A stretch of 64,000 nucleotides of DNA from Giardia intestinalis (GCA_000002435.2 CM018792.1); one strand, 5' to 3'; counted from the first letter of the stretch, positions 1 to 35,697 are shown. Notes: generated from the letters alone by a model not told the origin. Translations and numbers: made by a program.

Positions 1-1707
1 CAGGTGACAGGGCCACTATTACCAGCTGGCGGGTTACAGCTAACGCAATTAGTAACGCCTTGGATATTACCGCTACTCTCAGTACATTTTATGCACAAGT
101 TTTTAGTAGAATCAAGATAGTATCCAGCAAGACAAGTCTGACATGTGTACGTCTGCCCTGCTGCCGTACACGTGGCGCAACCTGCTGGGCATGAAGGACA
201 GGCCCCGGTATCGATGTTGGAGGGTAGGTTATTGGCACATGTCTTGCACTTGCCGTCGTTCCCTGCAGCATCCTTACATATCTGCATCCCAGGCTGCCTG
301 GTGGTTTCGTAGCAGCCGCCCTCGAAAAGGAAATAGTTAGTAGCGCATTTCTTACAAATGCCGTTTTCTATTTGTGTACATGATGCGGCTGCTCTAACAC
401 TAGCAGTGCAGTTACCATTCAGCGGTGCTTGCTTGGCGTCGCTGCATTTAGAGCAGTACTTAGCTTCTCCGATAGTTGCGCCGCATTCTGCACAGCCATT
501 TGTGTTTGTTGTGCACTCGTCTACACAGGTGCTACCACTGTCCGGAGTGCTTTCAACGGTGTATTTAAGCACCTTCTTTGCAGGACAGCCGGTGCACTGA
601 TATGGATCTTCACCGTTACACGTTTTACAGACAGAGTTGCACGCCCTGCAAGTACCATCATCTCCGTCAAAGTATCCCTCAAGCTTTTCGCACTTATCTA
701 CGCACTCCTTTGTCGGGGTGAGCTTCCTAGTATTGTCGCACTCTGCACACGTGCCATCGTCATTACACTTCTTGCAATCTTTTACAGTGCATGCAATGCA
801 CTTTGTCCCGGCAACATTGGGTTTGTTGGTATCTGTTGCACAAGCAGAGCATGTAATGAGAATTGGGCCTTCGGAATTCTCCTTTGGAGTGCATGTTTTG
901 CAGTCTGCTATTCCACCACTTTTATCATCACTACAAGATAAGCATTTGTTGCCATTATTGGGATCATCTTTTGGAAAATGGGTACTTTGTTCTTTGCAGG
1001 TCTGTTCATTGACACATGTGCCCGTTCCATCGCCACTATCTTTAAAATATTTATTGGCAGCGGTTGCTTTGCACTTCGTACATTTATCTGCTCCTGCATC
1101 ACACTTAGCGCAATTATTGTTGTCAGCACAAGCTGTGCATGTTCCCTCAGATGCGGCAAAGAATCCTTCGTCACAAGCTGTGCACACTGCAGGCTTAGCA
1201 GTAGACTCTGCTGCTTCAGGAGCAGTGCATACTGTACAATGCTGAACTCCTTTATACTTTTTGCCATTGGTCAGTGTTATCTCAGTGACATCACCACACA
1301 AGATAACAGACTGGTCTGTCTTCTGTGCCCCCGGTGGAATGAAGTACCCCACTGCGGCCGCTGAGCACACTCCCTCCGCGGCATCGGTGCATAACTTCTG
1401 CCCGGTCGCATCGGCGGTGCTATAGCAACCACCCTTATAGAGGAAGTGAACCCCGTCGCATTGTCCACATACCTTGTCTTCTGCTCCTAAATCAGCGCCT
1501 CCATTCTTTTTGCAACCAGCAGTTGTAACGGCGTCATTATCTTTCGGCATACATACTCCGTTAACGGGGACATTTCCTTGGTCCTTACATTCTGTGCATA
1601 TTTCTGTTTCGCCAACCATTTCACATCTTTCATTTGCACAATTTTGTGCTTGCTTGCATGCTGCCGCGAGAGCACTCAGCACAAAATAGAAAGCTACCAA
1701 CAACATT
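1..1707 (-). CDS. Variant-specific surface protein (VSP) family, cysteine-rich. This is the 5' part only, and the C-terminus lies beyond the window start.
   Basis: I translated the reverse complement by hand, starting from the ATG (rc of CAT at 1705-1707). The frame is continuous with no stop down to position 1. The N-terminus MLLVAFYFVLSALAAACKQ is a signal peptide. About 40 CXXC motifs follow (CTEC, CGQC, CTVC, CTAC, CAKC, CTKC, CLSC, CKTC, CSAC, CIAC, CAEC, CKAC, CTGC, CSKC, CKKC, CPSC, CATC, CQTC, CIKC, CVSC). Two GGCY motifs are present (LYKGGCYSTAD, LFEGGCYETT), which are the hallmark of Giardia VSPs. The ORF track does not list this gene because no stop codon falls inside the window. 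The plus-strand ORFs at 143-1364 are antisense artefacts. Confidence 0.8.
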
Positions 1708-4700
1708 GAGGTCCTTCTCAGCTTACCGCGTGAGCAAGAATAAGATACTTAAGACTAAAGACCTGACTTACTATGTACTGTGCTAATTACTCCAAAGAGA
1801 TTCGTCTCCTACGATACCTCTGCTTAGGACATAGAAGCTCATCGAATACTAAGCACATCTATTGCATACAGCCCCCTGCGAGCTCTCTGGGTCTGAACCC
1901 TATGCCCCCTGCACAACACGCAGGGAAACAGAAAATCCAAAAATAGGTGGTGAGACCTCTCTACACGCTCGCCGCCTCCCTACTTTGAGGCCAATCAAAG
2001 GACGGCTCGGATGCCCTCACTGTGCCGTGGGTTCATTGCTGGCTCCTCTCCTGGCGTATCTGCGTCCCTGATGAGTCAGCCCCCTGTGCCTCCCCTGCGC
2101 GGGCCAGGCCCTTGCGGACCCCCGTGCGCCGATGACCTCCTCTCCGCCTCTGTGGCATCTTCACTCCTTTGGATTATGCCTGCGACTCCTGGCTATCGTG
2201 AGGGAACTGCACTCAAGGACAGTCCGGTGCGAGATCCCGAGAAAAGGCTACAGTGATCGCTAGGGTTCGTGGAAGTGTGAATCAGTGTAGATTAGCCTAT
2301 GAGACGCTATGGATTGTTGAGTATGCATGACGCTATTTCTGCCTTTTTGTAGTGGATACTATTAAGGTTCCCCATCGCATGATAAGGTGTCAGATGGTCA
2401 GAGGGCGAGGCCAGCACTCCCAAATTTAGACAAGGAGGAAGCCCTGCCCAAACTGTGCCACCCCTGAACTGATGGATCAGGACTCTTATCCTCCCCTCTG
2501 GATCATCCTAGTGCTGTCGCTACCACCACTAATGGAAGCACCTAGGAGTGCAATATCTTGAGCCTGTTAGTGTAGGGCTCTAGGCCCCCAGAGCTTCCTA
2601 CATGTGGATGCCTGTGAGGAAAGAATGGAGATCCAAGGAGGTTGTGTTGATTTGCCAGCAATTGGCCGGATGCCTGGTCCAGTACCTTTTGTGGCCTCCT
2701 GTGGGTGTTAGAGCAGTTGACCCCCATCTGCTGATAAGAGAATCGAATAGCATTCGCTCATGACCTTTGGTCCGAGCTGTAGTTGGTCCCGAGGAGACAT
2801 ACCAATCAGCCCAAGCGTCCTACCTTTTGACTCGCGAATCATGCCACACTGTAGGGGTTGTACTGGTGTTGCTTAGCACGCGTTACATAATGCATAGAAG
2901 GCCGGCATCCTCCTGTCATATAGCTATAAGAGTCAGATAAAGCCCTACTGAGGGCGTCATATCCTGCGATTTCCTTGGCTCCACTAGAGGCCAAAAGAAC
3001 CGATGTCTACAGGCTGGTGTGAAAAATAGTAGGGTACGACAGCATACACCTTGAACTGGGAGTCCCATAAGCATGCATTTTTGATACAACTCGCCAAGAG
3101 TCTTGTAATAAGCTGGCCTAGGTCAGTGACTGAAAAATTTTCAATGGGCAGGCGACTACCGTGGTCTACAAGTCGCTCATCTCCCTTGTCGTGAAGGATA
3201 TCTGCTAATGTCTAGTGCTGCGGGCTGGGTAGCCCTTGTTCATCTGTGAGATTCGACTGGTGTACGTTATAGACTACTGACGAGACTGATATCATCCTCC
3301 ATCAGGTGGCTCTGGGTGAGTAGACGAATTCTGTAGTTGATCAGTTATTTTAAGAAAGGCTGCACTTATGAAGCCATAACTACAACTTGCGTTCGACAGA
3401 CAAAGGTGCCCTTGGGCTGTGGTACTCCATACAGGTTCCTCGGGATGTGTGGTACCTCAGCGTAGTCTCCAAGAGGGTAGCCCTGCCTGGCTGAGGCATG
3501 CAGACACGAGTACAGTATAGCGCCCTTCTCAGTCTACAGGATCAAGCACATCTCAGGCAACGAAGACAGATGGAGACCCAGAGGTGACTAATGCTAATCT
3601 GAGCTGCTCCGATCCCTGCTGTCCGAAAAATCAGCAGGGCCGCAGGATGACAGGGTCCACTTTTATGCTCTGCTCAAAGAGGCCGTGTCTTGGCAGAGAT
3701 ATGCGCCAAGGTCATTGTTAGCTACCCACTAACGAGGTACTAGCGCGCTTGAAGACCTCCCGGAATGGCCTTTCTCGGTTTGCTGGCCATGAGCTGGGTC
3801 CTCGCGCCAGCTAACTGGATGAAAAACAACAGTAGTATTACCCAAACGATGAGCTGAGAAGGCTGATGCTGACTATGTATCTCTCACGCTGAGCATACCC
3901 ACTGTGCAGCGCAAGGGATTTGACGTCCTAGGTGGTCAGTCGAAGCTGCTAAGTGTTTGGTAGTAACGATATGCACGCGGGCTCCAGACAGGGCTCTGAG
4001 AAGATGTTAAAGAGCACAAGACCTGCTGGACTATATAGGGCACACAATGAATGCCTACGCGGTAAACAGATTGACCCTTTTCCTTGGTAGATAGGACTCT
4101 GGTCTGCAATAGTCACCTACATGATGCGTGTCTCTGTGGGACCGATAGAGGCACCCGCTGATCTGGAAAGACCATCAGCAGTGGCCACACAAGATAGACA
4201 CGCAGAGGACGAGAGCTGATCAGATCACCCTGGATGATGAGCAATCCAAACTACGCAGTGTGTGTAGCAACCTTTGGTCGAAGGCAGAGATGCACTGTAG
4301 GACATCACGCAATCCAAGAGGCACTTTGGCGATTCATCTGTTGTGGGAGAACGTAAGTGAGACATTTGTGGACAGCAACCACGCCGACTGGTACCGGCCT
4401 GCACAGTATGCCTCTACAATAGATCCTCGCCTGTATATGGAGAGAAAGTGAATTTCCCCAGCTTCAGACGAGGCTGGATCCCAATAAATATTACGCCGCT
4501 ACAAATGCACAAAATCAAAAAGTAGCCTCCGATCTATTTATAGGCCTTGCAGTCTTTCTACGTTCGGAGGCCAGAAAGGCATTACAAGTGTCCTCGTTGC
4601 AATCCAGATTTATAACTAGACTCTCTAGCGCTGATCTTACCTCCCTGGTCTGTTGGTCGCCTCTACCTTTTTTGTGCGAACCAGCTCTCCAGGAGCCACC

Positions 4701-7700
4701 GTGCACAGATAGTCTTTTGCACATCCAAGTAGCACCGTCCTCCGTTGAGACGTGCAACCAAGGACTAGTCACTGTAGAGTGGGTGCACTCAGAGGCCAAC
4801 CTCCTTGCTGCACTGTCCAACATAGCAGTGAGCATGCACGCGAGCACATAGGCACGCAGAGATCGTGCCGCGGTCTAAGCCTGACATCACGCCAGGCGCA
4901 TAACAGTTGGTGTACAGAGTTCTATTTCTAGCCCTATACGCAGGTCCATGTCTCACTCTGAAAGGCAGTGGAGCGTTTCATGGCATTGTTCTGGATATAC
5001 AGTTATTACTATAGTTAGTGGGGAAGCAGGCACGAAGACCGAAGGCTTACCTGGAAGAGTCTCTGGCGCGATCAGCTGCTATTCTCTACTGATGGCAGAC
5101 AGCTTAGCTATCATAGTATCCACGCTACCTACCAGAGCTACATATGACCATGCATGCATCACCAGAGAAGCAAGTGCAATACCTGTTCAATCTGTTGGAC
5201 GGACACAGCCTCTCATCACAGCAAACACGATGGCAAGCAGGTCGCCAATGCAGGCCAGTTGAGATGCCCGGCTTAGTGCCGCTGTATACACCTAGAAGTT
5301 GCGATATACTTCCACGAACACAATGCACTGTCTGTACATCCAGTTGCCTTCTTTTGTGCTATTCACAGGTCGTAACGCCTCACAGGTCGAGGCTAGTACA
5401 GGACGTCCCCAGGTTACTCCCCTAAGAAGCCAAGGCTGGCACGGCTGGTACTGTGCATGATGTGCTCTCCCAGGAGACAGTGGGCGCTACCGTCCCTTTG
5501 GATTTTTTGATGTCAGACAATCGGCCCCGTGATGAGTTTATTCTTCGCAGCTTCCGTCCTACATATCGAGCCTGGCATCTGGCTGCTCAGGCCGCGGATG
5601 AGGAGGACGGTGCAGAGTGTCAGTCGCTGGGCCGCTTTCTATTCGCACATTGTCCTGAGAAACGAATAGGACAGTACAGCTTCCTCTTCTACTCTGGATG
5701 TGATGCAACCTAGCCGAGGCATATGCCCTTCCAAGGAGTGATCGGGTAGCGCCTGGAGTCGTTCATAATGGGACACTCGCCGTCTCCTAGCTCTGCCCCC
5801 TCCTCGGCTACCAGGAGATGCTGGTTTGTATACATGTCCACGGAGCACTGCATAGCGATAACAAGACGGCGCCATCATCCCTCGAGCCTCCTCGGCTTGT
5901 CCGGCAGCGTGCTTCCCGGAGTCCAGTGTGGACTTACCAGATGCATCGATACAGCTGTGGATACCTTACAGCATCGCACCTGACCAGCTCGACGTGCATC
6001 CTTTCCCATCTAGAGAGCAGCCCAGCCATGCACAGGAGCTCTTAGCTCCTATCCAGGGCCTGGTTCAATGCTCAGCTGGCTCGATGCCCTGCTGCACCTT
6101 GTTGGATGCCGCGTTGAAGCCATCGATCCGGCGATTGCCTTAGGCTCACCGCCTCACATTGCGTTGCCATAGAGTACTAGTCCTCAGGTCGCCCGTAGCC
6201 CGTTACGAGAGCTGTGATGCATGATCGCACACAGAGTGCCTGACTTAATATGCACCTGTCCACCGATGTACTCTGACACTTGCTGGTGGGGACGTGTCGC
6301 TACAACCACGCAAGTGTTTATACATCCTAGCAGCTCACATGCCATGTAATATAGAACTTTCCTACCTAGCACGGGCTCCATGATACCAAGACTCTGGAAG
6401 GGCACCTTGGGCGCCTTCAGTCCTATTTGGAGAGGAGACGTGGTACGAGAGGGCTGGCCGCTTCTAAGCGCTGCCTAGGCTAGTTAAAGGCCCGCATGAA
6501 GGCCTCTCACCGCATGATCAGCACGGTGCCCTGCTCCCTGTCATAGATATGAGAGCCAGCCCGCTGAGTCCACATCGAGGCAGAGCACCACCCACTAGTG
6601 TGGGCGAGACTTATAACCGTGCCCGTACATGTACACGTTGCTCGACCGGTTGGTTTCCATGCCCCTACGCCCTGCTCCTTCGCTGTGCAATTGCTCTAAT
6701 CGAGGCTACCAAAGCGTGGGTCCAGTATCCACTATGCCCATTGTACTGACAACGATAGTATACAGCTTGCTGTAGGTGCCACCTACCTCCAGGCATGCCC
6801 TCCACCGTCGTACTGCCGCTGGTGTGCTATACGATCTATATAACGCTTCATACTTCAGCAACCACTGGGAGTGTTGTCCTCCTGCCATCTTGACATCGAG
6901 TCCAATAACTGCCTGACAGAGCTCTCGGCTTGTGTGACCCTATATGGTAGTCTTGATGGGCACATACATGTGTAATAACTATGTTGAAGGATCCAATAAC
7001 AGCCACTGGCCACTTCATATTGTGTGAGATACTAGACAGAAGCAGAGGTGGAAGGTCCAAGAGGAACCATATCATTAGATCTGCATCTGCAGAGAGGCTC
7101 ACCTGTCACTGCCACGGGAACAGGGCCCTATGCAGAGCATCAGCAAGCAATGCCACGGGCAGTACTCTGACTGTGCAGCAGCAAAGTGGCCGATGATATG
7201 GAATGCTGACACATCTACTGACGTCATGGATGGACTGGCAGGCCAGACAAGGATGCTCTAGGCTGCGATGGGCTGGCATGAGATTGTGTATAATTAGGGG
7301 TCACTTCCTTGTTATGCCTGCTATCGGAAACCAGCTCATGAGATGGACAATTTCAGAGTGATCAGCCCCCGCGTTCTCCCAGACATCAAGACTGTGAGGG
7401 TCTCCGTAAGTTCTTATGTCCTCATCCAGTCATGCTGGCTGTTCTCAGAAGCAGTCATAACTGTCGGGCCTGTTCGGATGCCACACCCCTGCAGGCCTCG
7501 GTGCTCTGAGCACAGCTTCCAGGCTGCATGCGTGCGTGGATGGACACCAGGTACGTCACTCGCTCCCTACTTTCTAAGCCTGCTATGACAAGGGTAGCTC
7601 TCACTAGCTTGAATCAGCTACGCCCCTGGCGTTCTACCCCGGGAGTTGCAGGGCCCAGACAGTTGTCTTATCTACACTATGGTTGCCATAATGACGGGTA

Positions 7701-10449
7701 TATGATCACAGCCCTGATGGGATCCTCTTCGCTGTCCTTAGCAGACCTCCAACTCTTCAATGGGACAGATACGGGGCACCGTCTACCGACACTTCCAACG
7801 GGGGTAGCAGGCGCAGTGCTCTCGATACCAATGATGGATCTACAAGAGGAAGTAGATCTTCCGCATGCCCTTGCCAGGAAGTGGCGCTGACGTGGGCCAA
7901 ACGTATTGTCCCCGAGCTGCGCCTTGGGAGCCGAGACCTCCGCTGACAATGGGTAAGACTTGCGCCATTGGGCGACTCTGTAGGGAGGCTCCAGGAGTTC
8001 TTAGAAGCAGCACCCGTGCAGTGAGGCTTCGAGAATCATCCAAGTGGCGCTATCCAAGGACCACTTCCCCGAGGGAACAGAGGGTTGGGGGACCGACTCC
8101 CGAAGGGCGCCTTTGCAGTCTACTGGACAGCAGAGAGGGCCAGAAAGCAACAATCACCTCCAGATCCACAGCTCCCCTATCATAGAGACACTGGGATGGT
8201 CAGAATACGCCTCTCAAGAGGGACAGGAAGTAACATAGTGGCACAGCGCTGATGCTCACGGGATATGGTCGACGAGCACCTGGCCTCTGCTGGATACGAG
8301 GTGTGTGCTGAGAGCAAGGTGTCTGGATTGGGACGGTTATGCCTCTCCAGAGAGGAGACAGGAAGCACCACCATAGATGGGCATGTGCCTGAAGGAGACA
8401 CACAGGAAAGTGACTGCTTTGCTGGCAAGAGAGGACAATCCGAAGCATGCAGGTCTTAAACAAAGAAACGTGCATTCTGAAGAACTATCGACGCTAAGGA
8501 ACGAGCCAGTTCTCTGCATCATCCAGCAGAGGAGTATAAGGGCTGCTACTCCCTCCTCAAGCCTTCTCACTCAACTTAGACTTCCCTGGCTTCCAATTAC
8601 CACATGAACTACTGAGAATGCTAACTGTTCTTCCAATCCACAATAGCTGCGAAACGATAGCAAACTTCGTTTGAGTGCAGTACTAAGCAGCGCAACATAT
8701 GCAAAGACAGCTCTTAGAAGTCAATGTAAGGTATCATCTTGGTAACGGCAATCACCCTCGAATCAGCCGTTCAGTGGAGACAGGATTTTAATAAGATACA
8801 GTTGGGCCATAGACAGGCAGTGGGTGTAGAGCTATTGTAGACAGACGCCGCCCCTAAGAACGCCAGAGGGGAGCTCCCATCAGCTAATGTGTTTCCAGCG
8901 CCACGTCTCTAGTGGAGCATGGCCTCCCGCAGTAAGACTTTGCAGGGGTCACCTGTAGTAATTTTGGATGCTTTATGGGGTGAAGCAGCTTATCCACAGA
9001 CCTCACGAGACCGGGGCTGCCCACATAGCTACTAAAGTGAGAGAGTGTGATTGTATGGAGCAACACTACATCTGCCCCTCCATCATTTGGTGACCAGAGG
9101 ACTGCTCTCAGACTGCGCCTCTGCTCATAAGTGTCCAAGGGTTCCTCTAGCGATTGTCTCGTTGGCTAGTTAACTATGGCTGCCATGGCGACATAGATCA
9201 CTAGTGCATACGCTGGGTTACATTTTGCTAGAGCAGATGGAGGCATGACAGATCAACCCAGAAACGTCTTCTCACGTCGCACGAAAACGCGGATCTACAC
9301 ACTAGGGGTACACTCTCATAAACAGCTTCCTCTGCTACGATCTAGAGTTATCAGGCGAGCGGTGGCGCTTCAGAGCCATCTGCCTCCTCTATGCGAGAGT
9401 TACCCGATAGACCAGAGTCGCTGCCAGAAGGTGTGCTTTGCAGCAGACAGAGTATCTCATGTCTCAAGCCTGTCTGGCCATACTAGGGAACGAAGCCATG
9501 CCGCTAAGCCTCAGGGGATCGGAAAGCACTCCGCAGCCAGTGTGACTCTTGTGATGTTAGCTTCTAGGCTATGGAGGAGCCCTTGGCCTCGTGGTTTTTG
9601 CACTACGGCTCTACTTAGTTGGCCGTCTTACTCAGATGAATAGAACGTGGTGCCTTCTGCAAGTCCCTATACTGCGAGTTCACACTAGGATCCACTAATT
9701 TCTAACTAGTTTGATAGAACCTTGCTCTTATCTCCGCAGACTTGTTACTACAGACAACTCACTGTATTAACTTTATAGTGATCGTGAGTATTCCAAAGCT
9801 GGGAAGCCCTCTGTTAGAGCTACAGGTCCCAGCCTTCATCAAGCCTGCGATTACCTCATCAAAGCCTCCACACACTACGAAGCAGGCTTCTGCCCGTCTG
9901 CTGTGTACCAATGGTCTGCCTTAGACTTTGTGTGTCAGAGCCTGCGTTGGAGGATGCGCTTCTACATAGACTAGCCAACGCCTTGCCAATTGGGTGTCTG
10001 CTCTCATCCATCTGGATCGATGGGTTGTTTGTGGCTATGCCTGAGTCTGCTCTCTGTTGCCAGGTCCTCTCGAGCTGTGGATCTCGCCTGTCCTCGAAGT
10101 GGTGCTACTTCAAGCTGTCACATGTAGGTGGGGGCTCCTGCAGCCAGTGAAGTCAACGTCTTCTAAGCCTGGCATGCACCAGGGCTTCCAGAAGCGACGA
10201 CCTCCATCTGCCATGGCTAGTAAATGTCCTTCATAAAAGCTATGCGGTGACATGGCCTTTCAAGTCGTAACGCCTAGGGTTACGGATGGATGCAAGCGAT
10301 TGCTCTAGAGAACCACCGTGGCCTCAGGGCAAGTAAAAGCAACAAGTAACGGCAGCAGACTGCAGAGCAGCATGTAGGAACGGGGCCGGGCAGGCCTGAG
10401 GACCGCAGGGACGGCCGCTCCTGCAGGAAGCACCAGGATGCGAGACCGG

Positions 10450-10453
10450 AAAA
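10450..10453 (-). terminator. Pol III oligo-T terminator immediately 3' of tRNA-Asn
   Basis: The minus strand reads GCG-CTTTT directly after the discriminator base. Confidence 0.5.
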
Positions 10454-10454
10454 G

Positions 10455-10528
10455 CGCTCCCTGGCGGGCTTGAACCGCCGACCTTGCGGTTAACAGCCGC
10501 ACGCTCTAACCAGCTGAGCTAAGGAAGC
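10455..10528 (-). tRNA. tRNA-Asn (anticodon GUU). CCA is not encoded.
   Basis: The minus-strand sequence is GCTTCCTTAGCTCAGCTGGTTAGAGCGTGCGGCTGTTAACCGCAAGGTCGGCGGTTCAAGCCCGCCAGGGAGCG. The acceptor stem is 7 bp (one G-U pair). The D-arm is GCTC/AGCTGGTTA/GAGC. The anticodon arm is TGCGG-CTGTTAA-CCGCA, with GTT at positions 34-36. The T-arm is GGCGG-TTCAAGC-CCGCC. The discriminator base is G. Confidence 0.9.
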
Positions 10529-10591
10529 GCGCCACCGAGGGAAACAACATAATGATTATTATATGCATTGTGCACTTTTGTTTGGCTTGAA
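10529..10591. promoter_or_regulatory. A 63-bp spacer shared by the tRNA-Asn 5' flank and the start of the giant ORF. It contains the AT-rich stretch aacataatgattattatatgcatt.
   Basis: This is the only non-coding DNA between the divergent tRNA and the first ATG of the giant ORF (10592). Its AT richness resembles diplomonad initiator regions. Confidence 0.3.
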
Positions 10592-13500
10592 ATGCTTCCA
10601 GCGGCCCATGCAGCGGAAGATCTCCTCCTTCTCCTCCAACATCCGGCAGAGCGGAGAATCACCGCTCTTCCAGGATACTCGTGCGTTACTGCGCTCGGAA
10701 GACACAGCAGCTCTGAGGTAGTCTTCTGCAGCGAAGAAGAGGGCCAGGTTACCTTTACACCAGAGCGACCGGCACCTCCCTTTTCTTTTCTCTTCTACAA
10801 GAGCCAGGATGCAGCCCCTGCTGTGCTTCTAGGATGCAGCAGCTGCCAGGAGCAAACGTCCCTGCTTTCTACTATTCTTATAATTTTCACTGCTGTTTAC
10901 AAACAATCTGCTCGTTTCCAAACACAGCAACTATACCCGCTTTACGAGCAATTCTACCGCCTACTTCGACTTGACCCTCTACTTGTTCAATCGTCTGTGC
11001 TCGTTGACCTCCTTGAACATTCACCCCACATAGACCTTCCTGCGGCCCTAGATGCACCTCTGGTTTACAGATACGAAATGGGGGTGCGCCACTACTTCAG
11101 TAACATTTTGCACCTCTGGGCCTTAGAGGCGTCCAATCTCCTGAGCTTTAGCCAGGGGCCCCGTGTGTATGATGGACCCAGCACAAACACAAAGTGTGCA
11201 TATGGGACTCCAGAATATAGTGTCTTTGTTCCACGAATCAAAAGCTTTATAGACTCTATGCGTAAGCACATTAAACTAACGGGCTTCTCCTATACTGACT
11301 GTTTCAATCTGATCATTCTTGAAAAGCTAGCACAAATGCCATCATTGTTTAGTTTTATTCTCACAGGGAGCCAAAAGCATTCTCATCTTTTGTCCATCAA
11401 GCGCTACATTGACCAAGCTTTGGATGACAAGACTAGTGTCTTTCACAAGATGATTTGCATCCTTGCCAAGTCCAATTCACACAGTGTTGGCGAATTCAAC
11501 AGACTCAGCTACTTCTCCCAGAAGCAGGCTGGCGCATTGAAAAGTGCCCTACAACTTGCCATCGCCCTGCTGCCGTATGTGTTGGTTATCCATCGAGTCA
11601 GTACTAGTTATTACCATATTGTGCATAGCGACATTCAAGAAGAACTCTCGTTGGATTTGCTTAGCGACGCTTTCTTTACTGCTATCTGTAATAGACTTAC
11701 TGAGAGTAAGGAGCCCGCAGCCTATGACTTAATTGCTTATTCGCTAGGCTCTGACATAACACTGGCGGTTCAACATGCTATTGGTCCAGACCACTTATTT
11801 GCTACAAACATACTTCTATATAGACGGAACCTTGGGTCTGCACTTCGGTTTCTAGATAGACTAGGGAGTGTCCTTCCTGAGTCTCCCAAGCTTACCACTC
11901 GAATCTCACAACTCAGGCTACGCTGTCAAGATCTTCTCGACCTCAGTATGTGGCAGTATCAATATAACACTGCATTGGGTATTATCAAAACAAGTGTCTA
12001 CGAGTTTCCTCCCTCTCTGCTTACTATTCTCGAAGAGACTGTAAAGACAATCCAGCTTTTCATACCAGATTCGTACTCCACATCTGAGACGGAGCCAACA
12101 AGCAACTTTACCTATGCTCTAACATTGCTCCCGACCGAGGGTGCCTTTGATTGGCTTCCGTTTTTACTGCAAGGTCTAGGATCGGAGCATGTCGTCTCTG
12201 CTTGGCCAAAGAATCTCGTCAATTCATCCTCACTCGATAAACTAAGTGGTTCGGGTTCATACTATCCTATTTGTGGTCGGTATAAACCAACGAACACAAC
12301 TGAGCAGTCTTGTCAAAGAGCAGTCAAGGCGGCTATTCAAGGAGGAAGGCCTACTCCTACAAGCAGATCAACTTCTGGAAGAAAGAAACCAATCCTTAGA
12401 CTGACTCTTGATGTAGACGACCTCCAAGCTTCAAACACAATAGGCTCGAGCCTGTCGGTCAGCTCTTTTTCGCATGTAGCTGAGGCCCCAGTTAAATCTA
12501 TCACCAGAAGAGAAAAAAGCATGTTCAAGTACAACCACCCAAAAAGAAAACTTGTTACTAAATCGCTCACACTCGCAACACTATTTAAGCACAACTTTCA
12601 AGTCATGCAGAGTATCATCCACAGGGCAGATTTCAATTGCATCCACAGCATTTCTGTAGGCCTTCAGCGCCTAGCTCCGAGCTTGGTGCCAACTTTCGAA
12701 GGTGGCCGTGAGATTCAATCGGCTACACCCCCTATTCTTCCCCTGCATTTAGGACGACACATCATTGCAGTGCGCACGCTACTTGAACGGCAAGCGATCT
12801 TTGCAGCACTGTCCCCCTTGCTTCTACAGTTTATCCTTGCCTCTATCAGCTTTCTCTTTTACATCAAGCGCAACGTACTTAAATCATTCTTCAATATTAT
12901 ACATTTGGATCAGTACTACCCATGTGTGCTATTTATCGAACATCACTACAAGCACTGCGTGATTCTAGCATACATGGTTTGTTGTTTCGGAACTGTCCTG
13001 TTGAGGTTTGTAGCCTGGAAAGCCACCGAGTCTCCCTTGCTGTCGACTGTCACAGAGGAATTTCTTAGCAGAGTCACTAGCCACGGACTACTAGATGTGA
13101 TGCTCTATTTGTCCTCTCAGCTTTTGGAGCTATTACGTGTTTCTCTACCAACTCGTACTCATTGCAGACTCGGTGACTATCCATACAAGCATATTGCTTC
13201 ACTGAGCCAGAAATTGCCGTGTCCCGAATTCCTTACATTTCTATGGCTCTTTGATCAAGTATTTGCGGCATTGAAAGCAATGCGCGACGATTGCTATCAA
13301 GCCTGGTCGTCAGCACTCAATCAAACTGCCGAAAAGCTTCACGATATTATGACTTCTGTACCCATTTCTGTAGCAAGCCAGGCCGGTAACTTAGTGAGCT
13401 ATTCCATTGGTAATATAGACCCGCTTCCGAACTTCATTCGGAGTTGTCATCTGTACCAAGTTAGTACGGCATCTCAAATGTTCTCAAGCTCTGATGAAGG

Positions 13501-16500
13501 GACTAATGACCATCCTTTCAACGTATTGTATGATCTTCTGAATAAAAAACATGACGAACAGGACAATTTTCAGACCGTACTACTCAACTTTAAAGAAGAC
13601 TTGCTGAATTGCGGGCCCACAGTGAAGCATGGAGCGTGGATCTTACCTCCAATTTCTCCTCAGCTATCACAAGCCTCGCTTTCGCTTTTTCGGTTCTGTA
13701 TATCTACCTCCATACTTCACAAGCATAGGCGCCTAGAGTCTTTACTTAATGAGCATCGTTCGCTTTATACACGTCTTCATCAGTCCCACCTATGGACGTT
13801 GGTTCGAGAACAGTGTGTACAGGTCGATGCTTTATTCAAGAGTTATCTCTCCAATCCAGCTTTCATCTGGCAGACAACTGACACTATGGAGCAATTTCTG
13901 CAGGACCTCAGCGCTTCTATCCAGCTGCTTTCGTCGCAAACCCATACTCTATCTACTATCACTGCTAATCTTCGCAACAGCCTTATGAGCTATGCGCCAG
14001 CTTTAAAGAAGCGCATTAACTTGCCAATCACACAGCCCCTTGCACCTGTTTCAGAATTTCTAGCATCATCCCGCTCGTGGTCTAATGACCAACTACCAGA
14101 CAGCATTGTTGTGCATATTCTCAATGATATCTTGTCACAGGAGTCAGAACTAGGAGACACACCTAAGTATTTCATTCCAAAGTTTGCAGAGGTAATCCAG
14201 TATCATGAGTATTTGTCGTTTGGAAGCATGGTCCTGGCAGACACGGACTTATGCAATAATAATACTGACGGTGATGGCCTAAATCAACAAATCAGCTTGT
14301 TTATCAATACCTGCAACCAAATTGAAGAGCGTATCTACCTGTTTAAGAGATCTATTGAAAGCCAACTTGATTCTTACTGCAAAGAAGTAGAACTGCTACG
14401 CGCCTCTTCTGAGTTATCTGATGAGCTTTTGCTGGCACTGTTTAATGACCTATCTCTTACCTTGCACGAATTGGCTGTTGTGTGGATGCTTTATCTGTAT
14501 CTTCTCTCTTCACCTAAAACCCCCACCCTACTCCACGTTGCAACGACGCTCATTGGCGACAAGTTATATACAAGTCCCGCCTTAGGGTCACTTTCCGAGA
14601 TCCCCCAGGCGATAACAGACTTACTCTCACTGCTCTCCCTACATAAGACCATCGATCAGCAATCCATGACACCAGAGTTGCAAAATATTTATAGCTGGGC
14701 CGAAACGCTGATCCATGCAGATCCGCTATTACTTCGGCTATCTGAATCTATAGAAGACAGAGCTCTTACTGCAGTACTTCATACAGTCACCGGAAGGTTA
14801 GCTATATGGGTTATTAGCGTCATTCAAATTCCCCTCCTAATTGACCGAGTGCTAGAGAAGTTGCCCGAAATGAAGTCTTCGTTCCACAACTTATGCAGCA
14901 AATCGACACGGCCTGCTAGATTCGATTGCGAATACTCTGCCCTCAACCAATACCTTCCCCTCAATCTCCTTTTTTCGGACACAAGTATTGTTCATTATTA
15001 CAAATTTGATGGGCTTCTATTCCACATAGCAAAGCTATTATTTTTCTGTTACTCGAAAGGGTATGAGCAGTTTGATGGTATTACTTCCACAATCTCTGCT
15101 AGCCATGCCCAGCTTTCCAATTTGAAGCAATCAGAAGACATTGTACTAATGGACCTACATACACATCAGAGTGCCTCCCTATTTCTGGAGAACTTGCTCG
15201 GCTATCTGGGTGACATCTTGCACATACAAGCATCCATAGATCATATACCTAGTACTAAGCAATTTAATAGATTTTTTGCGGAGTTTTTGCGATTTAAGAC
15301 CTTTATCACGGAAAAGGAAAGCAGGATTAGTGTGATAACTTGCGGGTTGTACCTGCTTAGAAGCACAGGCCTTTCGGAGCCTCTTATTTCACAAGCATCC
15401 ACCATCGTGAAGGAGCTGTCTTCTCCAATTCTATTCAATCTTTATTCCATTTTAAATCTCTATCTAGACGCGCTGTCCAGGGTAGAGAAGGAGTGTTACA
15501 CGCATTTAAAGCATGCACTGGGCCAACTTGATGACTCCAGGTCTCTTATCATCGAATACCGTTACTATCCAGTTATCCCATCGACTCTGGAACCGGCAGC
15601 GCTGATAAGGACCGTTTATCTTCTGCGGAGTATCTTTAAAGTCGATGCCCTCAGGAAGCTTTACGAGCAGATTAATAATAGGAGTCAGGTTTTGATCCTT
15701 TACATGCAGAAGAACGGGATAGATATAGAGCCGGTCTTTAAACAATCCACTGAAAAGATCCTAGCTCTCCAAGGGGCGATAAACATTACCTATGAAAAGG
15801 TGAAGTATCTCGTTGATAGCACGCGAGCAAGCCTTCTGGCCTACACTGTGTCTGCTAATGATGCGCTGATGACGGCTCTACATGACTTCCTCAGTTTCAG
15901 GGCTCTTGATCATAGGGAATCGTTAAGCCTGGCACTCCAAAGTGCCATTAAGCAGAGAGCGTTGACAGGGGCACACGTCCGCAATCTATATGTACACGGT
16001 TCCCGGATCCTTCTCTTTCTAGAAGACTCCCTTGTACGCATCCGGCATGTCTACTCCAAGCTGTGTTACCACTATGAGCTGTGCTACCTTCAGGGAATAT
16101 ACGGTCCTGCTATCTTCGTAAAAACAGCGCACGATATGCTGGGCTTCATCAGGCGGAGTATTGAGGGCACTGAGTTTCCCAATTATCTACGCTTGATCGC
16201 CTCATACCAAGTTATCTGGGGACGACTTTGCCAAGTGGCTGACAGACTTCTATATTATGAGGACAAGCCAATAGCCTTGTTCTACGATAGCTACACGGAG
16301 ATAATGGCTTTGCTTAAGGACAGCTACACACTTCGAAGACAAGTCACCCTTGACAATGCAGTTTTTCTTGAATTCTTGAGCTGGTATGAAGATCTTCTGC
16401 ATATTCTTCAAGAAGAGCTTCTCTCCATTATCAATCTCAAAGATTTTACACCAGAGCAATGGCAGGACCTAATTTATCACATCGGGCATGTTACTCAAAG

Positions 16501-19500
16501 CTCTAAATGCATGGCCCTCTGCACTCTGGATAGCGAAACGCAGCTTACTCTTGGAAATGTCCTACTTCTCAAACTGAACACACACCCAGACATACTGAGA
16601 GGGAAGATATCTATGGCCTTGGTTAGCTCTGCCGTCTCAACCAAGGTTACGAATGCAATCTCACACTGGTCCGATCTTAATACCACAGATTTCATAGCGC
16701 TTGTCCGGGAGTTATCTGACATGATGGAATGCACTGGCTTGGAGCACTGTCTCTTCGCAAACTCTATTGTAAAAGGTAGAGCGGCAGATATTTATGTTGA
16801 ACAGTACTTTGATGCCCATGACCTTCTTTCCCTATCTATCATCCAGCGAAGCGCAGAAGAACTGGTACGAGGGATGCTACAATCTACATCACTAAAAGCT
16901 TCTCACACAGCACTTCTATTGGAACATCTTGAAACCTTCAGGGCTGTTGCAGATATGGAGTGTAGCGAGCGATCATTCCCTATGCTCACGTGCTGCCAGG
17001 TGTATCTGCGTACAATTTTAGATGTTGGGCTTGTGAGCGCGGTATTTGTTTCCACTCTGTCTCAGTTATATAATTTTTTAATAGCCTATTCGTATATAGG
17101 GCACGAAGATTGCTTAAACCCCTTTACTGCTTGGACACTCGAGGATGAGGTATCCAAGTGTTTAACCGTACTATTTCATATATTGTCAATACACAAGTAC
17201 ATACTTGAATTGTATGACAACAATCTGCAATTCAAACGATACCTATTATCAGATATGATCGAAGACAGCAGCAAAACTGTGGAGGATATAGAAGCTGTAC
17301 TAGCGTTTCTTCATGGACAGAAAGTGCTCCAGAAGAAGGACCGCTTTTCTGTTGAGAACTTCAATATATTCTGCGGACGTCTTACTAGCTACTTTGTGCC
17401 TATAAGGCTGTGTGCCTTTTCTATGCCCCTTTATCAGGCAGAAGAAGCTTTAAAACTTGAAGACCATACTTCATCGCCTTCCCAGGAACCATCCAACAAC
17501 TCTTCTTCCAAGACTTGCTTAAAAGATGTGTCGATTTATCCACTTATGATTCTACTATGTGTGGCGCTAAAGGCAGTTATGGTAACTATTATTGATTCTG
17601 TTAAGGATTCCTTACCACATCCATCTCTAGAGCAGTCTTCAGAGACTTCTTACATAACAGACTATGCAGTTACGGAAATCAGAAAGGCCATTATTCCTTA
17701 CAATCTCTTCTGCCTGTTTTCGAAGGGTCTTAATGTATGTGTCACACTTAATACCTTGTTATCCCTTTCAAAAATAGATCCTTTACTAAACGGGATTGTA
17801 TCTGGGGATCTCTCTTTTAGCAATCCCAACCACAAATTTTTTCTTCAAGCCTTATCAGAGGCTAGCGGATCTGAGTCTACTTCAGATGCAGCAGAAGCCG
17901 ATGTAAGTAACTGCTCCCTCTTCAGAACTGCTCTACTATCAACTTTCTGCAATCCCTTTCTTAAGAGACTGCTCGCCGGATATCAGAAGCTGATTACCAG
18001 CTCTGAGGATCAAAACATTATTATAGGCTATTGGTGCGACTTTCCCAGTGAGTCTCCGATGATCTTCTATCAACCTGTCAACCTTTGTGCTGTTAATAGA
18101 TGGATATGTACCTCTGAATGCTGCAATTTACATCCCTTATGGCTTGCGGTTATTTCTGTTTTTCATGCATACGAGGAAACCTTGCGCATAGGATCCTTGC
18201 TTGCCCTCCGTGAGCTTCGTGCACTATGCTCGCTATCTTTGTCGGTGGATCTTTGCACCAACCCATCAGCAAATGATGAAGATCACGCCAAGGGAGTCTA
18301 TCTTACTTACGGCTACTGTGACCTAGATGCGTATCAATACGAATTTGTTCCTTTTCAGGCCATGTATATCGGTGCGCGCTTGTTTTTGAGCACACTTTGT
18401 CTATTCCAACACGATTACACCGGGAGGGCCTCCATCATATCCTCAACAAGCAACGACTTTCTTATCTACATCTGTGCACTAGTACAGAAGCACATGTCTA
18501 TAATCACTGAATTGCCACTGCAATTGCTTATGCTTCAGAAGGAGGGTAACAGTGAGACGCAGCTGCTTACAAGACTCATTGACCTACCCTCTATGCAGTG
18601 GAAAAGTGCCATGCTATGGCTACTCTTTGAAGACTTCTGCGAAAAATTAAAGGCCTCAGAAACAACCCTTCAAGTGCTACGGGATAGAGCCCTTAGTGGA
18701 GGAAAGGCTTCCATAGACCCTGACTTCATCGCTAGGGATCTACTCCAGAAGCTGGTAAGCGATAATGTGCTCTTCTTGCAAATGGAGCTCAGCATCTTTC
18801 CGGGGCAGGCGATGTCTCTACTAAATAGCCTTGACATCTCTTTCAGTCCCTCAAAAGCAGCTTCTAGGGGTATCATGTACTGTGCTTCTTCATCTCCAAA
18901 CGGGGTTGTTATCGCCAGATCGTTGTTTGCCCAGATTGCATCATCCATACCCAGTTTACCGATGATAGACTTAATTAGAGTTTACTCTCCAACTTTATCA
19001 GTAACACGAAGTTATCTGAATGGTCTGTTGACCGCAGCTTCTTGCCAAAGCATGCTATTGTATGGGCTTCAGTTCATTTCACTAGTTCGTTCAATTTTTC
19101 AGACAATTCTTTTCTCTGATGAATCTCAAGTGCATAGAAAGCAGTCAGTCCAGTTCTTCGTCGCTCACCAAGCACAGCAAGTACTCACGGAGATTGCGTC
19201 CGTGCTATGCTTTTCCAACACACAAAACAAGCAGCCAAGTGCCTCAGTGTTATCCGCATGTAGCCATGAAGCTGTTACTCAAAGATATTCACTGATTCTT
19301 GTCCCAATTGATTCCAAGTGGGAAACTTTTCAACGACAAGATCTCGCTGTCTGCGGATCTGATCAAAGTTTCAATCGAAATGTCTCAGTAGATAAGCAGT
19401 CGGATCAGTCGCACATATACAGAGCGTGTGTGGAGATAGCAAACCTAATCAGGGATCCATCTAACGGAAAGGTGACTTGCAGAAATTTGGAACGTGCTCT

Positions 19501-22500
19501 TGCTAAATTTTTATATCATCTACTTGCTGGAACAACCATTGAATCAGCAGAGAAATTTCTTTATTTATCTATAGACGAACTGCTGCGGACCTTGGCACCA
19601 CTGTCCTTGATAGGAATTAGACGGGTTGCAGAACATAATACTATGTCAGTACTATTTGATTCCAAGGTGTTTATGATGCATGCACAAAGTATTCTTCAGC
19701 AGATGGTGTCTATGGACCTTGATGAGCGGCTTCTCCAGTGTATGGACCCGCTGCTTGACTGGCTGGTTCAACTGGTGATGCGGCTTAGGTATCTATTCAT
19801 TGTGGCAAGTCCCCTCAACGCTGTTGTACTCTGTGGGCCAGTCTTTTCCTATGTCCACGTCCTTCCGTGGATTTTCTTTCGAGCTCTTAAATCCTCTGGC
19901 TTTCCAACTTGTTATTCCTCCGAGCAATCTGAGCACCTATCCAAGGAAGCACAAGACTATGCATTTTTATCCATTCATTCTCTAAGGTTATCATCTGATA
20001 GATCTATCAGGGAAGTGATTTCCCTTTATGCTTCAGAGCAACCCTGTTACAGAACTATTCTTATGTTGACAACAGAAAGTCTTACTGATGAACAAAGAGA
20101 CATCTGCCATCGTTATGGAATTCCGATTCTTAACACAGCAAGGCCCATTGCTGACGCAAATGACTTTAAGCATTTAGAGCTTCTCTCCCTCTATACAAAC
20201 CTCCATGCTTGGTGCTGCCCAATATATCCAAGAATAAATGGCACTTGGAGCTTCACTCCTTCGCCATTCTCGTTAATATCAATGCGCCACGATACAAGTT
20301 CAGCTTTGGAGTCACAAGCAGAGCTAAAAGAAGTGCAGCAGCAAGACCCAGAGTCTATGACGGAATCGTCGGAGCGCCTTCAGAGTATGTATTTGAGTAT
20401 TAATCATCAGAGGAAGCTCCTTGCCCCCCGAATAGTCCACTCCTTTATAGAATTGTCTGGAGTGTATAGAGATCTTGTTGAAAAGGCTGTATCATCAACC
20501 GCGCTTTGCACGTATTATCGTTACCACGCTATAACTGGCGCCTTGTCTATCGTGTTGGCCATACTTGACACGCTTCTGATGGACCCATGCATTAGGGTTA
20601 ATATTTTGAGATTGGAAACAAAGTACTTTCATGCCATTGTTGTGTTCTCGTGTAGCTGGGCCTACGCTGCCTTGCCAATAAAGTCCCATCGTAATGTAGA
20701 TCTTAAATCTGACTGTGCTAGTGCACCAGCTAGTCAAGCCGAGAGTTTCCTATATGTAGATTCATCTATCCGCAAAAAATCGCCCCTTCTTCTCAAAACT
20801 GTGCCTCGCACCCTGCACACCAGGCAAGCGGTCATCGACTCTGCTCAGATTTCATGGCCTGTGTTTCTTAGCAACGCCTTAGGCTCCCTTGTGCTGACTA
20901 AGATAGGATGTCATGCCTCAAACATATATGATTTTGTACCGGCTGTTCGGGTAGAAAACAAAGTGATTGTCGATGCTCTGGTCACCACATCTCTCTGTTT
21001 GGAGCACAGATCTTGGCCCGAACTGGCCCAGACTCCCAGGGCATTAGTTCCACAAATCGTGGTGACACTATGTCAACTTTATGCAGGGGAAAGGCTTCTT
21101 TCCGCTGACGCTGGCCTATCGCACATTGAATTCTCTGCTCTAAGTGCACACATATCTCACTTCTATTCCCTCGGGGTGTATAGCCTTCCTGCACAGCGCT
21201 GTCTCGGGATTCTTAGTAATGTCTTTATCATACCTGGTGCTCAGCCAGTACGTAGAACAGCTACGCCAGAGAGTAACTCCAAGCGTCGGCTTACACCTCT
21301 TCAAATCGTGCATTGTGCCTTCTATCCACTTAGTCGAGATCCAACTAGCAAAGCTGGAGATGCTACGAACCTTACATTACGCTCTGGCGACCCAGAGTTC
21401 TGCCCCCTTGTTGTGGCTGCAATACCCATCTTTCTAACGCCTTCATCTCAGCAACACAAGGCATACTCTTACGCTAAGACATCAAGTCAGATTCTATATA
21501 TCTTTGATCACCATCCCCCTAGGCAACACATACAGAGACTTCACCACCCCGCGTCCATGGTTCTACTCCAAGACACATACCCCGGTTCGCAACAAGCAGA
21601 TTCACGGTTTACATTTATGACCCCGCGGATCAACTCGACTGTGCATACTCTAGTATTTCAACTTTTCCAGCCATTAGCTAGCACCTTACCTCTTTCTTGT
21701 GATCAGGATGCCTACATTATCCTGATTCAGCTTACTCTTCAGGCAATTCAGGATTACCGAGGGCCTGCAGAACATCATCACTCTCTCAATACTATGCTAG
21801 AAATATTGGCTCCTGTTCAGTCGTTGTTGGAAGGCTTTGTCCTCAACGAGAAAATAACCCGGAACGTATACCGGTCATTAGCGCATGAAGAGCTAGTTTC
21901 GACAAGCGAGCCTCTTCTCACGCCCAGTCTTGCTATTTTTGCATGGCTTCTTTCCACTGTCGACTTTTATACATCATGCTTCTCTAAATCATTCTATGAT
22001 AGTCCAGAACGCAGCAGTTTCAGTGAGCTGAAAGACTTCTATGGAAGCCTACTCTCTCTGGCCTCATTCAAGGCTAGCAAGGTTGCAAGTACAGATGCAG
22101 ACCCTGGGACCTTCCTTAGCAGCTCTGTAAAGTCTTTTGGCACCATGGAGCTTCTAGAGTTCTACGAGACGTACCCTCTGTTTGCTATTTCGCTCGGACA
22201 CACCAATCTTTTTCTACCGCTAAGGTTACGGAATATATCCACCTTTCCCATAAGAACTGGCTCCAACACAATGACTGGTATCTTGTCCAACTTCGCGGCA
22301 CATGCCCAGAAGCTTGAAGAAGTGGTTACACATTCGGTACCCCCGCTAGATTCTTCAATGTTCTTACGTCTCCTCGGTCTCCAAAAGTATCAACAATTTC
22401 TTCTGGCAAACAACACATCATTGCCTCTTCCCTGTCCCGTAACTAAATCATCTGAACAGGCAGAGTCATCCACTTCAATTGATGTAGGAACAATTTGCAC

Positions 22501-25500
22501 AACAGCTATCCAATGCATTAACTTTAGAATACTGTGTGATCTATTTTCAAATATACATAAGATCCTGCACTCCACTCCTTTGGATCCGCTGGATGGCAAC
22601 TACATATACTACTCACATATCTCTATGCCTGCATTTAGAGTCGGGGTTCTTCTTCGTAATCTTTCTCTTTTCCCCGTTACACGTGCAGAAGGCGTCTCAT
22701 CAATCCTTGTCAACTCTCACCTAAGGCTCTCTCGATTCATTCTCACAGAACCAGGACACTCTCTTAGGGACACACTGGCATATGCTTGCAATTTGCGGGG
22801 GCTAATATACCCACTCGAAGTTGTTGGCATACAGAGTACGGAGCAGGGCATCTTGCTGGAGATTGCGCAAACACTATCGCTAGGCTATATGCTGGTTGCG
22901 TGGATGCGAAAGCCTGTCTGCATATACATCTCTTCGTATGCGGTTCGAAATGCTAAGATTCTTGCGTCATTGGTTTCACTCCTATGTTACGGGTACTCTC
23001 CAGAAATCATGAGCACATTAACGACAATAGAGCAATACGCATTAACTCGAAAGATTCTTGGATTACTCTATGACCCATCTTATGGTCCAGAAAGATCGAA
23101 CAGTGCAATACTCAAAGACTTTAGCAGCATTGTTGATGGCCCTCTCGAACGCATAGGCATCCTTCAAATTTCTGAGGACAGTAGTCCATCACTTGTCAAG
23201 GCTATACGTGCATCTGGTCTCCGGCGCTTTCTAAGTCTTGTTGCGTTGGCTCACTTCTCAATTCCGCCAGCCTCTTCACGTGGACGAGATCCAAATCAGA
23301 ACTACACGTCACAATTGAAACTAAAACGGACAGGGGATCCTCCTATTTCAGTTCTGAACACATTGCCAGAGCTTCTGTGCTCCCCCATTGATGTTCTTTC
23401 AACAACTTCGGCAGACGTATCCCTGTCCTCCCTTTTGCATGTCTATGTGGACGTTCCCATATACTCTGATGTTCATTTGTTTCTGAAAATGGCTCACTAT
23501 AATCACATATATACCAGTAATTTGGTCTTTGCTATGCCCCCAGCTACAGAGTTCGGCCTTGTCGAACATACCCTTCGCAGAGAGCTGAGTATGGAGACTC
23601 CAGCCCTTCTTCAAGATATACTAGACGACCAGGAGTGTCTAAAGCTAGCTAAAGTATATACACACATAATCACTTATCTATCTAAAGTAGTGGATAAACG
23701 TTTATTGTTCTACTACACATCCTACTCAACTTGCGTAGAATTTGGTAAAGTTTTCAAGTCTCTGCTCTACCATAGGAGGCACACATTTACTGTTCGTCAG
23801 AAGCACTACGATCTTGCACTCACCAATCTTCGACTTGTCCATGAAAACTCTGAGCAGGCCTTAGAATCTTGCAGACGAGCATCCGCAGAGATCCAAGCAC
23901 ACTCACTTGCATTTCAAAACACTAACTTTGAGCTATCACATTTAGAAGAGGAGATTTCGGTAGTCAAACAGCGACTGTGCGTTAGAACTAATGATAAGAG
24001 GTATGCAGAAGAGACACTGAAAGAGGCATCTGAACTTCAGAATCAGTACAAGAAACAGATAGTAGTATTTCATAGACAAATGGATAGGATCTCCGATTAT
24101 CAAAATTCAGTCAATCCCATTTTATTTGCTGCAGGCTGGCAGACGCATAAACGCTTTCAGGAGTGCCTTTCTATGGCCTGCCTACACTTAGCTGCATGTA
24201 CCTCCAAGAAAGTCTCAGTTTTCGCGCTCTCAGTACCGAAGAAGGGGGCGTCAAAGCATACATCGAAAGAGATAGAGCCATCTCTGGATACATTCAAGCG
24301 GCGCGTTAGCAATATTGATGTGTTTATCAAGGAGATGATTGCACCCTCTCCCGAGGAAATAGTCAACTCTCCGCACTATCAGCTTATTAAGGACTATCTT
24401 CTGGATGCCATAGAAAGTATTTCCGGCTATAGACATACCGCCTCAACATATCTCGTGCCAATCGAACATGTCAAGGTGGAGAAGGGGGCCCAGAGTGACC
24501 TTGCTGTTCTCCCCAAAGAAATATCGACACGTCTTCCACCATTCTATACAAAAGAGAAGGCACGTTATGTTCCATCAACCATGGATCTTTTAAGGGCCTC
24601 TGTCGAAGTGCGAAGTGTCCACGTGATTGCTGATATGCTTTTCTGGATCCTCCTTTTCCAGATGGAGCTTAGTACCATGTGGATTAATGGCGCCGAGTAC
24701 AGAACGGTTATTTCTGATCAGGAAACTGCTATTTCAAACTGCGCAAATGATATTGACAGCCTGGAGCGTCAACTGGCTGCCTTTGAGTCTCGTCTTCTCT
24801 TGGGGCAAGAGCGCAAGCAGAATCTTAATGCAGAGCTAACCAACTTACGCAATAAGTATGCAGAGTCCAAAGATATGTTGTCAACAACCAGCAGCATTTT
24901 AAGCAGCATCAGCGACTTGAGACAGGCTTGGCTTGGAACTAGTGCAGACCTGAAGCTGAAATTAGACAACATTATGGGAGATAGTATTGTCATCGCCACA
25001 GCATATACCATGCTACTCCATGTCAACTCATCAACCCGGTGCAAGCACCTGGCAGGCATAGCAAGTCTCTTGGCAGACACATATGGATACACCATTTCTC
25101 CTGTTTGGACCGAGAAGGGCCTCTCTGATAGCTGCATCACTAACATGACCCTTTCAAGTAACGAACTCATGCAAATACAATACGCTGCTTTAACGTCTCA
25201 CTTCTTTGCCCCACAGGTGCCTCTTTATGAGCGTGATCTGAATATAATTCTAAGCAACACTAGCGTAGAGGTGTCTGGGGACATCAATGTGTCAGAGGAC
25301 GAGTGGCTGGGCCTAATCAACTGTTTCGGATCACTAACAGAAATCGAAGCAGACATACTCCGCCATGGAAGCACACTTATACACGAGACCTTTGTTTTCT
25401 ACGTGACTGCACTGCTATTTGGTCACCGTAACACAGCAATTCTTGTCACAGATCAGACAAGATCCCAGGGGAGGCTCCTCTCAGAAATCGTTTCTAAGGT

Positions 25501-35621: not shown

Positions 35622-35697
35622 ATGAATTTTTTGAATTTCTTTTTCAATCGCCTGGTTTGCTTCGCTCTTGCACTCTTGCAACTACAGTTTCATCTCA

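Follow-up and report, generated by a model that had tools for sequence, protein, structure and literature searches.

The stretch of DNA between positions 1707 and 10453 of the Giardia intestinalis WB sequence analysed here (64,000 bp, GCA_000002435.2 CM018792.1, hereafter the window) carries no gene over 8747 bp and lies between the ATG of a minus-strand variant-specific surface protein (VSP) gene and a tRNA-Asn gene. It is a real, non-genic and native part of the genome, and we conclude that it is probably the extended non-coding 5' flank of this VSP gene, which starts within an initiator motif. The preliminary description of this DNA, made from the sequence alone, had pointed out an 8.7-kb stretch free of open reading frames (ORFs) in a window that is otherwise about 95% coding, and this was confirmed: the longest ATG-started ORF in the stretch has 132 aa (9245-9643), while 94.5% of the remaining window (10529-64000) is ORF and the next largest gap in it measures 987 bp (35682-36668). 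The 5' part of the VSP gene occupies 1-1706 on the minus strand, the gene continuing past the left end of the window, and its ATG (1706-1704) stands within the initiator motif PyAATGTT, where the minus strand reads TCAATGTTG. The translation is cysteine-rich, has a signal peptide at its N-terminus (MLLVAFYF), and the ORF matches, at 100% identity, a 627-aa G. intestinalis WB VSP with Pfam family PF03302 (P0001). The distal boundary is formed by tRNA-Asn(GTT) at 10454-10528 on the minus strand, predicted by ARAGORN and scoring 66.6 bits in Rfam, with a TTTT run 3' of it; 63 bp beyond this gene, at 10592, a 5280-aa ORF starts.

Surroundings of this kind have been reported for the VSP family. Upstream of vsp genes, non-coding DNA typically extends over a long distance, and among some vsps these upstream sequences are nearly identical while the coding regions diverge (Adam et al. 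2010, PMC2996952). VSP surroundings also tend to be gene-poor and to show more allelic variation (Xu et al. 2020, PMC7000408). In a further survey the intergenic length at VSPs had a median of 1280 nt and a mean of 2131 nt, the GC content 5' of VSPs was 53.9% over 2 kb and 50.6% over 200 bp compared with 45.2% for genes, and the long VSP upstream regions were mutually alike and contained transposon relics (bioRxiv 10.1101/2022.03.07.483299). For the usual spacer of the genome, a median of 79 nt and a mean of 392 nt have been published. In the present stretch the first 2 kb upstream of the VSP has 51.3% GC and the first 200 bp just 45.5%. Taken together, the stretch fits each feature of the published VSP 5' flank class that we tested, and it is unusually long.

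The stretch is non-coding and encodes no protein and no recognisable RNA. Its longest stop-to-stop run is 148 codons, while 300 dinucleotide-preserving shuffles gave 151 ± 24 codons and reached the observed value in 50% of cases, so that the earlier view that the longest ORF is about what random sequence would yield proved correct. Coding scores were far below those of genes, with a 3-base periodicity of 0.4-1.7 as against 2-16 in the flanking genes and a mean dicodon score of -0.04 as against +0.15 in held-out genes, the dicodon model having been fitted to one half of the genes in the window. A six-frame Pfam scan of the stretch with stops masked returned no family at E <= 0.1 and no reverse transcriptase (RT), endonuclease, integrase or transposase signal at E <= 1. 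When 120 VSP and high-cysteine proteins were used as tblastn queries, no match below E ~0.07 was noticed in the stretch; neither a CRGKA nor an RGKA tail was found in it, and CxxC motifs numbered 1-8 per frame of ~2900 codons as against 25 in the 568 aa of the VSP fragment. The absence of tblastn similarity, of a CxxC-rich frame and of a CRGKA tail speaks against a VSP pseudogene or remnant. The preliminary description was thus right that no RT, endonuclease or cysteine-rich remnant is recognisable, and the decayed VSP graveyard that it offered among its explanations is not supported. Searching Rfam 15, we found that only the tRNA-Asn reached its gathering threshold; the best sub-threshold match within the stretch had 21 bits against a gathering score of 47 (E = 0.65, chance level), and the suggested cluster of small RNAs received no Rfam support.

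One ORF of the stretch had once been annotated as a gene. The ORF at 4948-5262 (plus strand, 104 aa) corresponds to the former 'hypothetical protein GL50803_107308' of the first WB annotation (XP_001709822.1), while seven further small ORFs of the stretch are absent from the protein collection. That the stretch conceals one or more protein-coding genes, such as GL50803_107308 or a gene disrupted by sequencing errors, is very improbable. The old ORF is open in another isolate with 95% amino-acid identity, and a 97-aa ORF overlaps its site in DH (assemblage A2); however, its 8 nucleotide differences are spread 3/2/3 over the codon positions and cause 5 amino-acid changes, P15 (assemblage E) has stops in every frame, and neither periodicity nor dicodon signal nor Pfam match was found in the stretch. 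Many such small ORFs have moreover been dropped as over-annotation in the current reference (PMC7000408). We therefore rejected GL50803_107308 as a coding gene, on account of the even spread of substitutions over codon positions and the stops in P15.

The strongest link between the stretch and the VSP gene comes from its relatives in other genomes. In P15, the nearest VSP (P0003, 66% identity, locus L001) is preceded by ~7 kb which, like the stretch, contains no called gene (L001 3029-10000). BLASTN blocks at 1-2360, 4213-5626, 6033-6272 and 6658-6952 make the flank collinear with this P15 VSP flank over 1707-6952. Between the blocks (2300-4400) the identity is ~0.50 and the transition/transversion ratio 1.4, compared with 0.40-0.42 and 0.74-0.86 in controls; since both values stay above the controls, we take all of 1707-6950 to be homologous to P15 and near saturation, and beyond ~6950 the signal between WB and P15 drops to control level. 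On the P15 contig itself (ACVC01000111.1), the VSP at 10001-11917 stands between inverted copies of its own 5' flank (3461-9815 and 11983-18347), with 98.7% identity between the two arms along ~6.4 kb. The arrangement may be a real palindrome, or the assembler may have collapsed a tail-to-tail VSP pair.

In DH, a full HMMER search with the old ORF led, through the 97-aa ORF, to locus L010, which has a VSP on the minus strand followed by its flank. Here L010 2939-8338 aligns with window 695-6189, that is from the interior of the VSP to 4.5 kb upstream of its ATG, with 71% identity over 5.6 kb, so that the flank part common to WB and this DH VSP unit is 1707-6189. Identity is 54-66% in the VSP coding sequence, 79-89% over 1877-3371, 63-77% over 3372-4736, 55-62% over 4737-5111 and 75-84% over 5487-6226, and beyond ~6200 it falls to 46-55%, the level of unrelated sequence. 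In this copy, then, the flank is far more similar than the VSP coding sequence. The right-hand neighbours differ in all three genomes: tRNA-Asn and the 5280-aa gene in WB, Kre9_KNH and ankyrin genes in P15, and an RT relic followed by Peptidase_C1 and DEAD helicase genes in DH. WB and DH belong to one assemblage, and in conserved genes its sub-assemblages A1 and A2 are reported to differ hardly at all; we therefore read the DH locus as a paralogous unit of a VSP with its 5' flank. Contigs from other isolates cover window 1-2460 (L002-L004, 86-87% identity) and 3459-5324 (L008 and L009, 91-93% identity), and three further VSP loci that we sampled (L005-L007) had no similarity to the flank.

These alignments show that the proximal 4.5-5.2 kb has been inherited and duplicated with the VSP gene as one unit, that related units of VSP and flank lie in different chromosomal contexts in WB, DH and P15, and that most of the flank has diverged to near saturation between assemblages A and E. 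Among the explanations offered beforehand, non-genic filler came nearest to this, but it was too general, as the stretch is more specifically a VSP 5' flank with homologues in two other genomes. The similarity between copies, furthermore, is a mosaic of tracts with different histories. At three-way sites, WB agreed with DH rather than with P15 in the ratio 109:55 over 4213-4650 and 136:49 over 5151-5626, but in the ratio 64:110 over 4651-5150 (chi-square p = 9e-13), and such differing genealogies of neighbouring tracts point to recombination or gene conversion among flank copies.

Two islands of the flank have changed more slowly than the rest, which suggests that some constraint acts on them. 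The first is the VSP-proximal island at 1707-2250, which is alignable in every relative examined; it shows 66% identity to P15 with few gaps, as against ~47-50% in the next 2 kb, and over 1707-2460 the identity to the metagenome relative L002 is 85%. In DH L010 the identity near the ATG is 59-64% in sliding windows spanning 1638-2001 and 79-84% from 1877 onward. The second is a block of 735 bp (4501-5235), which overlaps the old ORF GL50803_107308. The block has 72% identity to P15 with 4 gap columns, as against ~50% in its surroundings, and 96.3% identity to the Logan contig L008 (27 differences, no gaps), as against 88.1% over 3459-4500, which gives a rate ~3-fold slower than that of its flanks in both comparisons. 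The block is not coding: its mismatches are distributed 58/69/72 over the codon phases, and none of the six frames is free of stops in either WB or P15.

These properties bring up the possibility that the stretch, and the block in particular, is a regulatory non-coding RNA or cis-element locus for the choice or silencing of VSPs, either transcribed or bound by a factor. Such a reading can call on the ~3-fold slower rate with almost no indels, on a distance between block and VSP ATG that is kept at 2.6-2.8 kb in WB, P15 and DH, on a window of 160-180 nt (4640-4820, plus strand) that folds with z ~ -3 against column-shuffled alignments, and on the precedent of RUF6, the GC-rich non-coding RNA genes among the Plasmodium var genes (PMC8957917). 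However, this was one of 16 alignment windows, folding of the whole block against shuffles gave z = -0.5 on both strands, and of the 24 pairs of the 4640-4820 fold that are changed in DH, 13 are broken and only 11 stay paired, in a comparison that has three effective lineages only. We therefore see no convincing evidence for a structured RNA in the block. The longest run identical in the three lineages within the block is 12 nt, there is no Rfam match, and when WB is compared with DH, no part of the flank is less similar than the centre of the block; the apparent conservation may partly reflect mosaic ancestry, since the genealogy of 4651-5150 differs from that of its flanks. A two-motif pattern derived from the block had no match in the metagenomes of the Joint Genome Institute. 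On balance we hold the regulatory reading of the locus to be quite unlikely, and the narrower proposal, that the 735-bp block, alone or together with the remaining GC-richer flank, is a cis-regulatory element or non-coding RNA gene which helps to decide expression of the adjacent VSP, is a long shot. If true, the block would correspond in Giardia to the non-coding elements found alongside Plasmodium var genes.

The distal gene-free part (6953-10453) has no detectable relative among the sequences compared. Aligned with the next P15 segment it gave an identity of 0.44 and a transition/transversion ratio of 0.91, barely above the controls; beyond 6190 there was no tblastx match to the DH or P15 flank, and 6200-10453 had no plasmid or phage match. 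In composition it is like the proximal stretch (GC 0.528, CpG 0.53, AG/CT 1.37). It is mainly for this distal 3.5-4.3 kb that a decayed graveyard of retrotransposons or other mobile elements, splitting the VSP unit from the tRNA gene, has to be considered. On DH contig AHGT01000063.1 (L010) we noticed an RVT_1 relic at 8811-9200 on the minus strand (E = 2e-6; 28.1 bits against a Pfam cut-off of 29.6), which lies in a gene-poor flank directly distal to the end of homology with the window. This relic in a paralogous flank speaks for mobile elements, as do the retrotransposon relics described from the DNA separating paired VSPs and from long upstream regions of VSPs (bioRxiv 10.1101/2022.03.07.483299), and the homology limits at ~6200 (DH) and ~6950 (P15) would fit insertion or rearrangement breakpoints. 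In the stretch itself, however, the six-frame scan reported above was empty for all mobile-element domains, tblastn with the DH relic gave no match, the tblastx searches were empty for 6200-10453, terminal and internal repeats are missing, and the distal composition cannot be told from that of the proximal flank. The retroelement graveyard of the preliminary description is thus not borne out within the stretch, the relic in the paralogous DH flank notwithstanding, and we consider a mobile-element origin unlikely.

An assembly artefact, or foreign or contaminant DNA placed between the VSP and the tRNA gene, was the last alternative. In its favour, the 10.45-kb junction is not spanned by any independent contig and 6953-10453 is without a relative in the sequences compared. 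Against it, independent assemblies cover window 1-2460 (L002-L004), 3459-5324 (L008 and L009), 695-6189 (the L010 paralog) and 1-6952 (L001), and the reference assembly was built from long reads at 200x coverage (PMC7000408). For 1707-6950, the insertion considered in the preliminary description is contradicted by five independent assemblies that contain homologous sequence; for 6200-10453, a foreign origin is opposed by the want of any plasmid or phage match and by a dinucleotide signature equal to that of the proximal part and the P15 flank. This explanation is accordingly extremely improbable.

The composition of the stretch sets it apart from the coding part of the window. Its GC content is 52.4% compared with 46.6% in the rest of the window, which substantiates what had been judged by eye as slightly GC-richer, and its dinucleotide signature (AA/TT 0.77, CpG 0.58, AG/CT 1.30, CA/TG 1.23) is uniform over three sub-segments. 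The P15 flank, at GC 0.563, has like biases, with AA/TT low, CpG low and AG/CT high. A/T-only runs of at least 6 occur at 3.7 per kb as against 6.7-8.9 per kb in genic DNA; the claim that the stretch has none of the A/T runs of the other spacers thus stands as to their rarity but not as to their absence, for 15 runs of at least 7 are present. Homopolymers and tandem repeats are as inconspicuous as had been stated, the longest homopolymer having 6 bases and Tandem Repeats Finder reporting one 35-bp array of 2.2 copies and nothing else. Comparison of the stretch with itself and with the rest of the window, which had been proposed as a way of finding degraded repeats, revealed no internal, dispersed or terminal repeats in the stretch and no similarity to the rest of the window.

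As to the raised GC content, neutral-equilibrium composition fails as an explanation, since fourfold sites of the neighbouring genes have a GC of 0.43 compared with 0.524 in the flank. GC-biased gene conversion is likewise unsupported: strong-to-weak changes were at least as frequent as weak-to-strong ones (45:24 for the proximal part, 16:10 for the block), although these numbers are small and P15, the outgroup used to polarise them, is saturated. Transitions greatly outnumber transversions in the flank, the ratio being 4.2 for the block and 7.4 when L002 is compared with WB upstream of the VSP, and reaching 55:2 in one 250-bp window. The same was seen in ordinary genic DNA, where window 16447-37076 compared with L012 (Logan SRR3177919) showed 0.34% differing sites between two assemblage A isolates, 66 of them transitions and 4 transversions; the bias is therefore genome-wide and not local to the flank. 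As the genic control is equally transition-biased and CpG sites are just 1.6x more variable than other C sites, localised hypermutation, whether resembling repeat-induced point mutation or caused by a deaminase, was rejected.

We propose that the flank would be mostly unconstrained spacer, and that its main evolutionary role may be to supply the homology through which VSP loci recombine and undergo gene conversion with one another. The cis-acting information needed by the VSP would be carried by the first 0.5 kb and possibly also by the 735-bp block ~2.7 kb upstream. Because Giardia promoters and poly(A) signals are short and A/T-rich and the flank has half the usual density of A/T tracts, it is likely, judging from composition, to be transcriptionally quiet. 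It may also act as a buffer between the VSP locus and the genes next to it, and the tRNA gene would then mark where it ends.

Several observations weigh against the reading of the whole stretch as a mostly unconstrained VSP 5' flank. At 8.7 kb it is about four times as long as the published mean VSP intergenic length, and its distal 3.5 kb, being without a known relative, may have another origin. The two slower islands (1707-2250 and 4501-5235) speak for some constraint, and a GC content of 52.4%, above both the fourfold-site GC (0.43) and the GC at third codon positions (0.48) of the neighbouring genes, means that the composition is not simply the neutral equilibrium of those genes. Finally, at least five independent Logan short-read contigs end inside the tRNA-Asn gene (~10500), ~90 bp before the ATG of the 5280-aa gene, and none of them crosses the 10.45-kb junction; the tRNA is presumably multi-copy and breaks assembly graphs, which would account for the lack of an independent contig across the distal junction.

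As to the coding part of the window, the 5280-aa ORF (10592-26434, plus strand) has no Pfam family in the gene tables, and its first 800 aa had no match in a word-index homology search, a weak negative as the same tool missed a known relative elsewhere. Genes with Rad52 (39967-40992), Sir2 (46256-47431) and Spo11/Top6A (50093-51208) domains lie within 11 kb of one another.

Giardia expresses one VSP of roughly 200-300. Gene-poor, GC-richer VSP flanks have already been published for the Giardia genome, and the stretch is an ordinary example of a kind that is functionally unexplained. What this locus adds is a flank that travels with its gene as a unit, swaps tracts with other copies and holds one slower sub-block, and it offers defined targets for perturbation, namely 4501-5235 and the first 0.5 kb.

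Compared with the known VSP flanks, the stretch is alike in lying directly upstream of an initiator-motif VSP, in being gene-free, in having a GC content of 51-52%, above the genic average, and in its homology to the DNA upstream of a second VSP, the coding sequences having diverged more than the flanks. It differs in its length of 8.7 kb, against a published mean of 2.1 kb and median of 1.3 kb, in not standing between an inverted VSP pair within the window, in showing no detectable retrotransposon relic and in having a distal 3.5 kb without a known relative. Relics of Giardia non-LTR (long terminal repeat) elements, both dead elements of the GilD type and GilM/GilT, are reported from VSP intergenic regions, and the paralogous DH flank contains an RT fragment; unlike these, the stretch has no RT or endonuclease signal in any frame and no repeats. 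With RUF6 of Plasmodium falciparum (PMC8957917) it shares the situation of GC-richer non-coding DNA beside mutually exclusive surface-antigen genes, here with one slow sub-block. RUF6, however, is a short, highly conserved, multi-copy transcribed gene, whereas our block has no three-way identical run longer than 12 nt and gave no conserved fold, so that the likeness is one of analogy only.

Transfer RNA genes of yeast and human (tDNA insulators) are chromatin boundary elements. The tRNA-Asn gene resembles them in lying precisely where the gene-free flank gives way to the densely coding region. This position may be coincidental, and we know of no evidence of Giardia tRNA genes acting as barriers.

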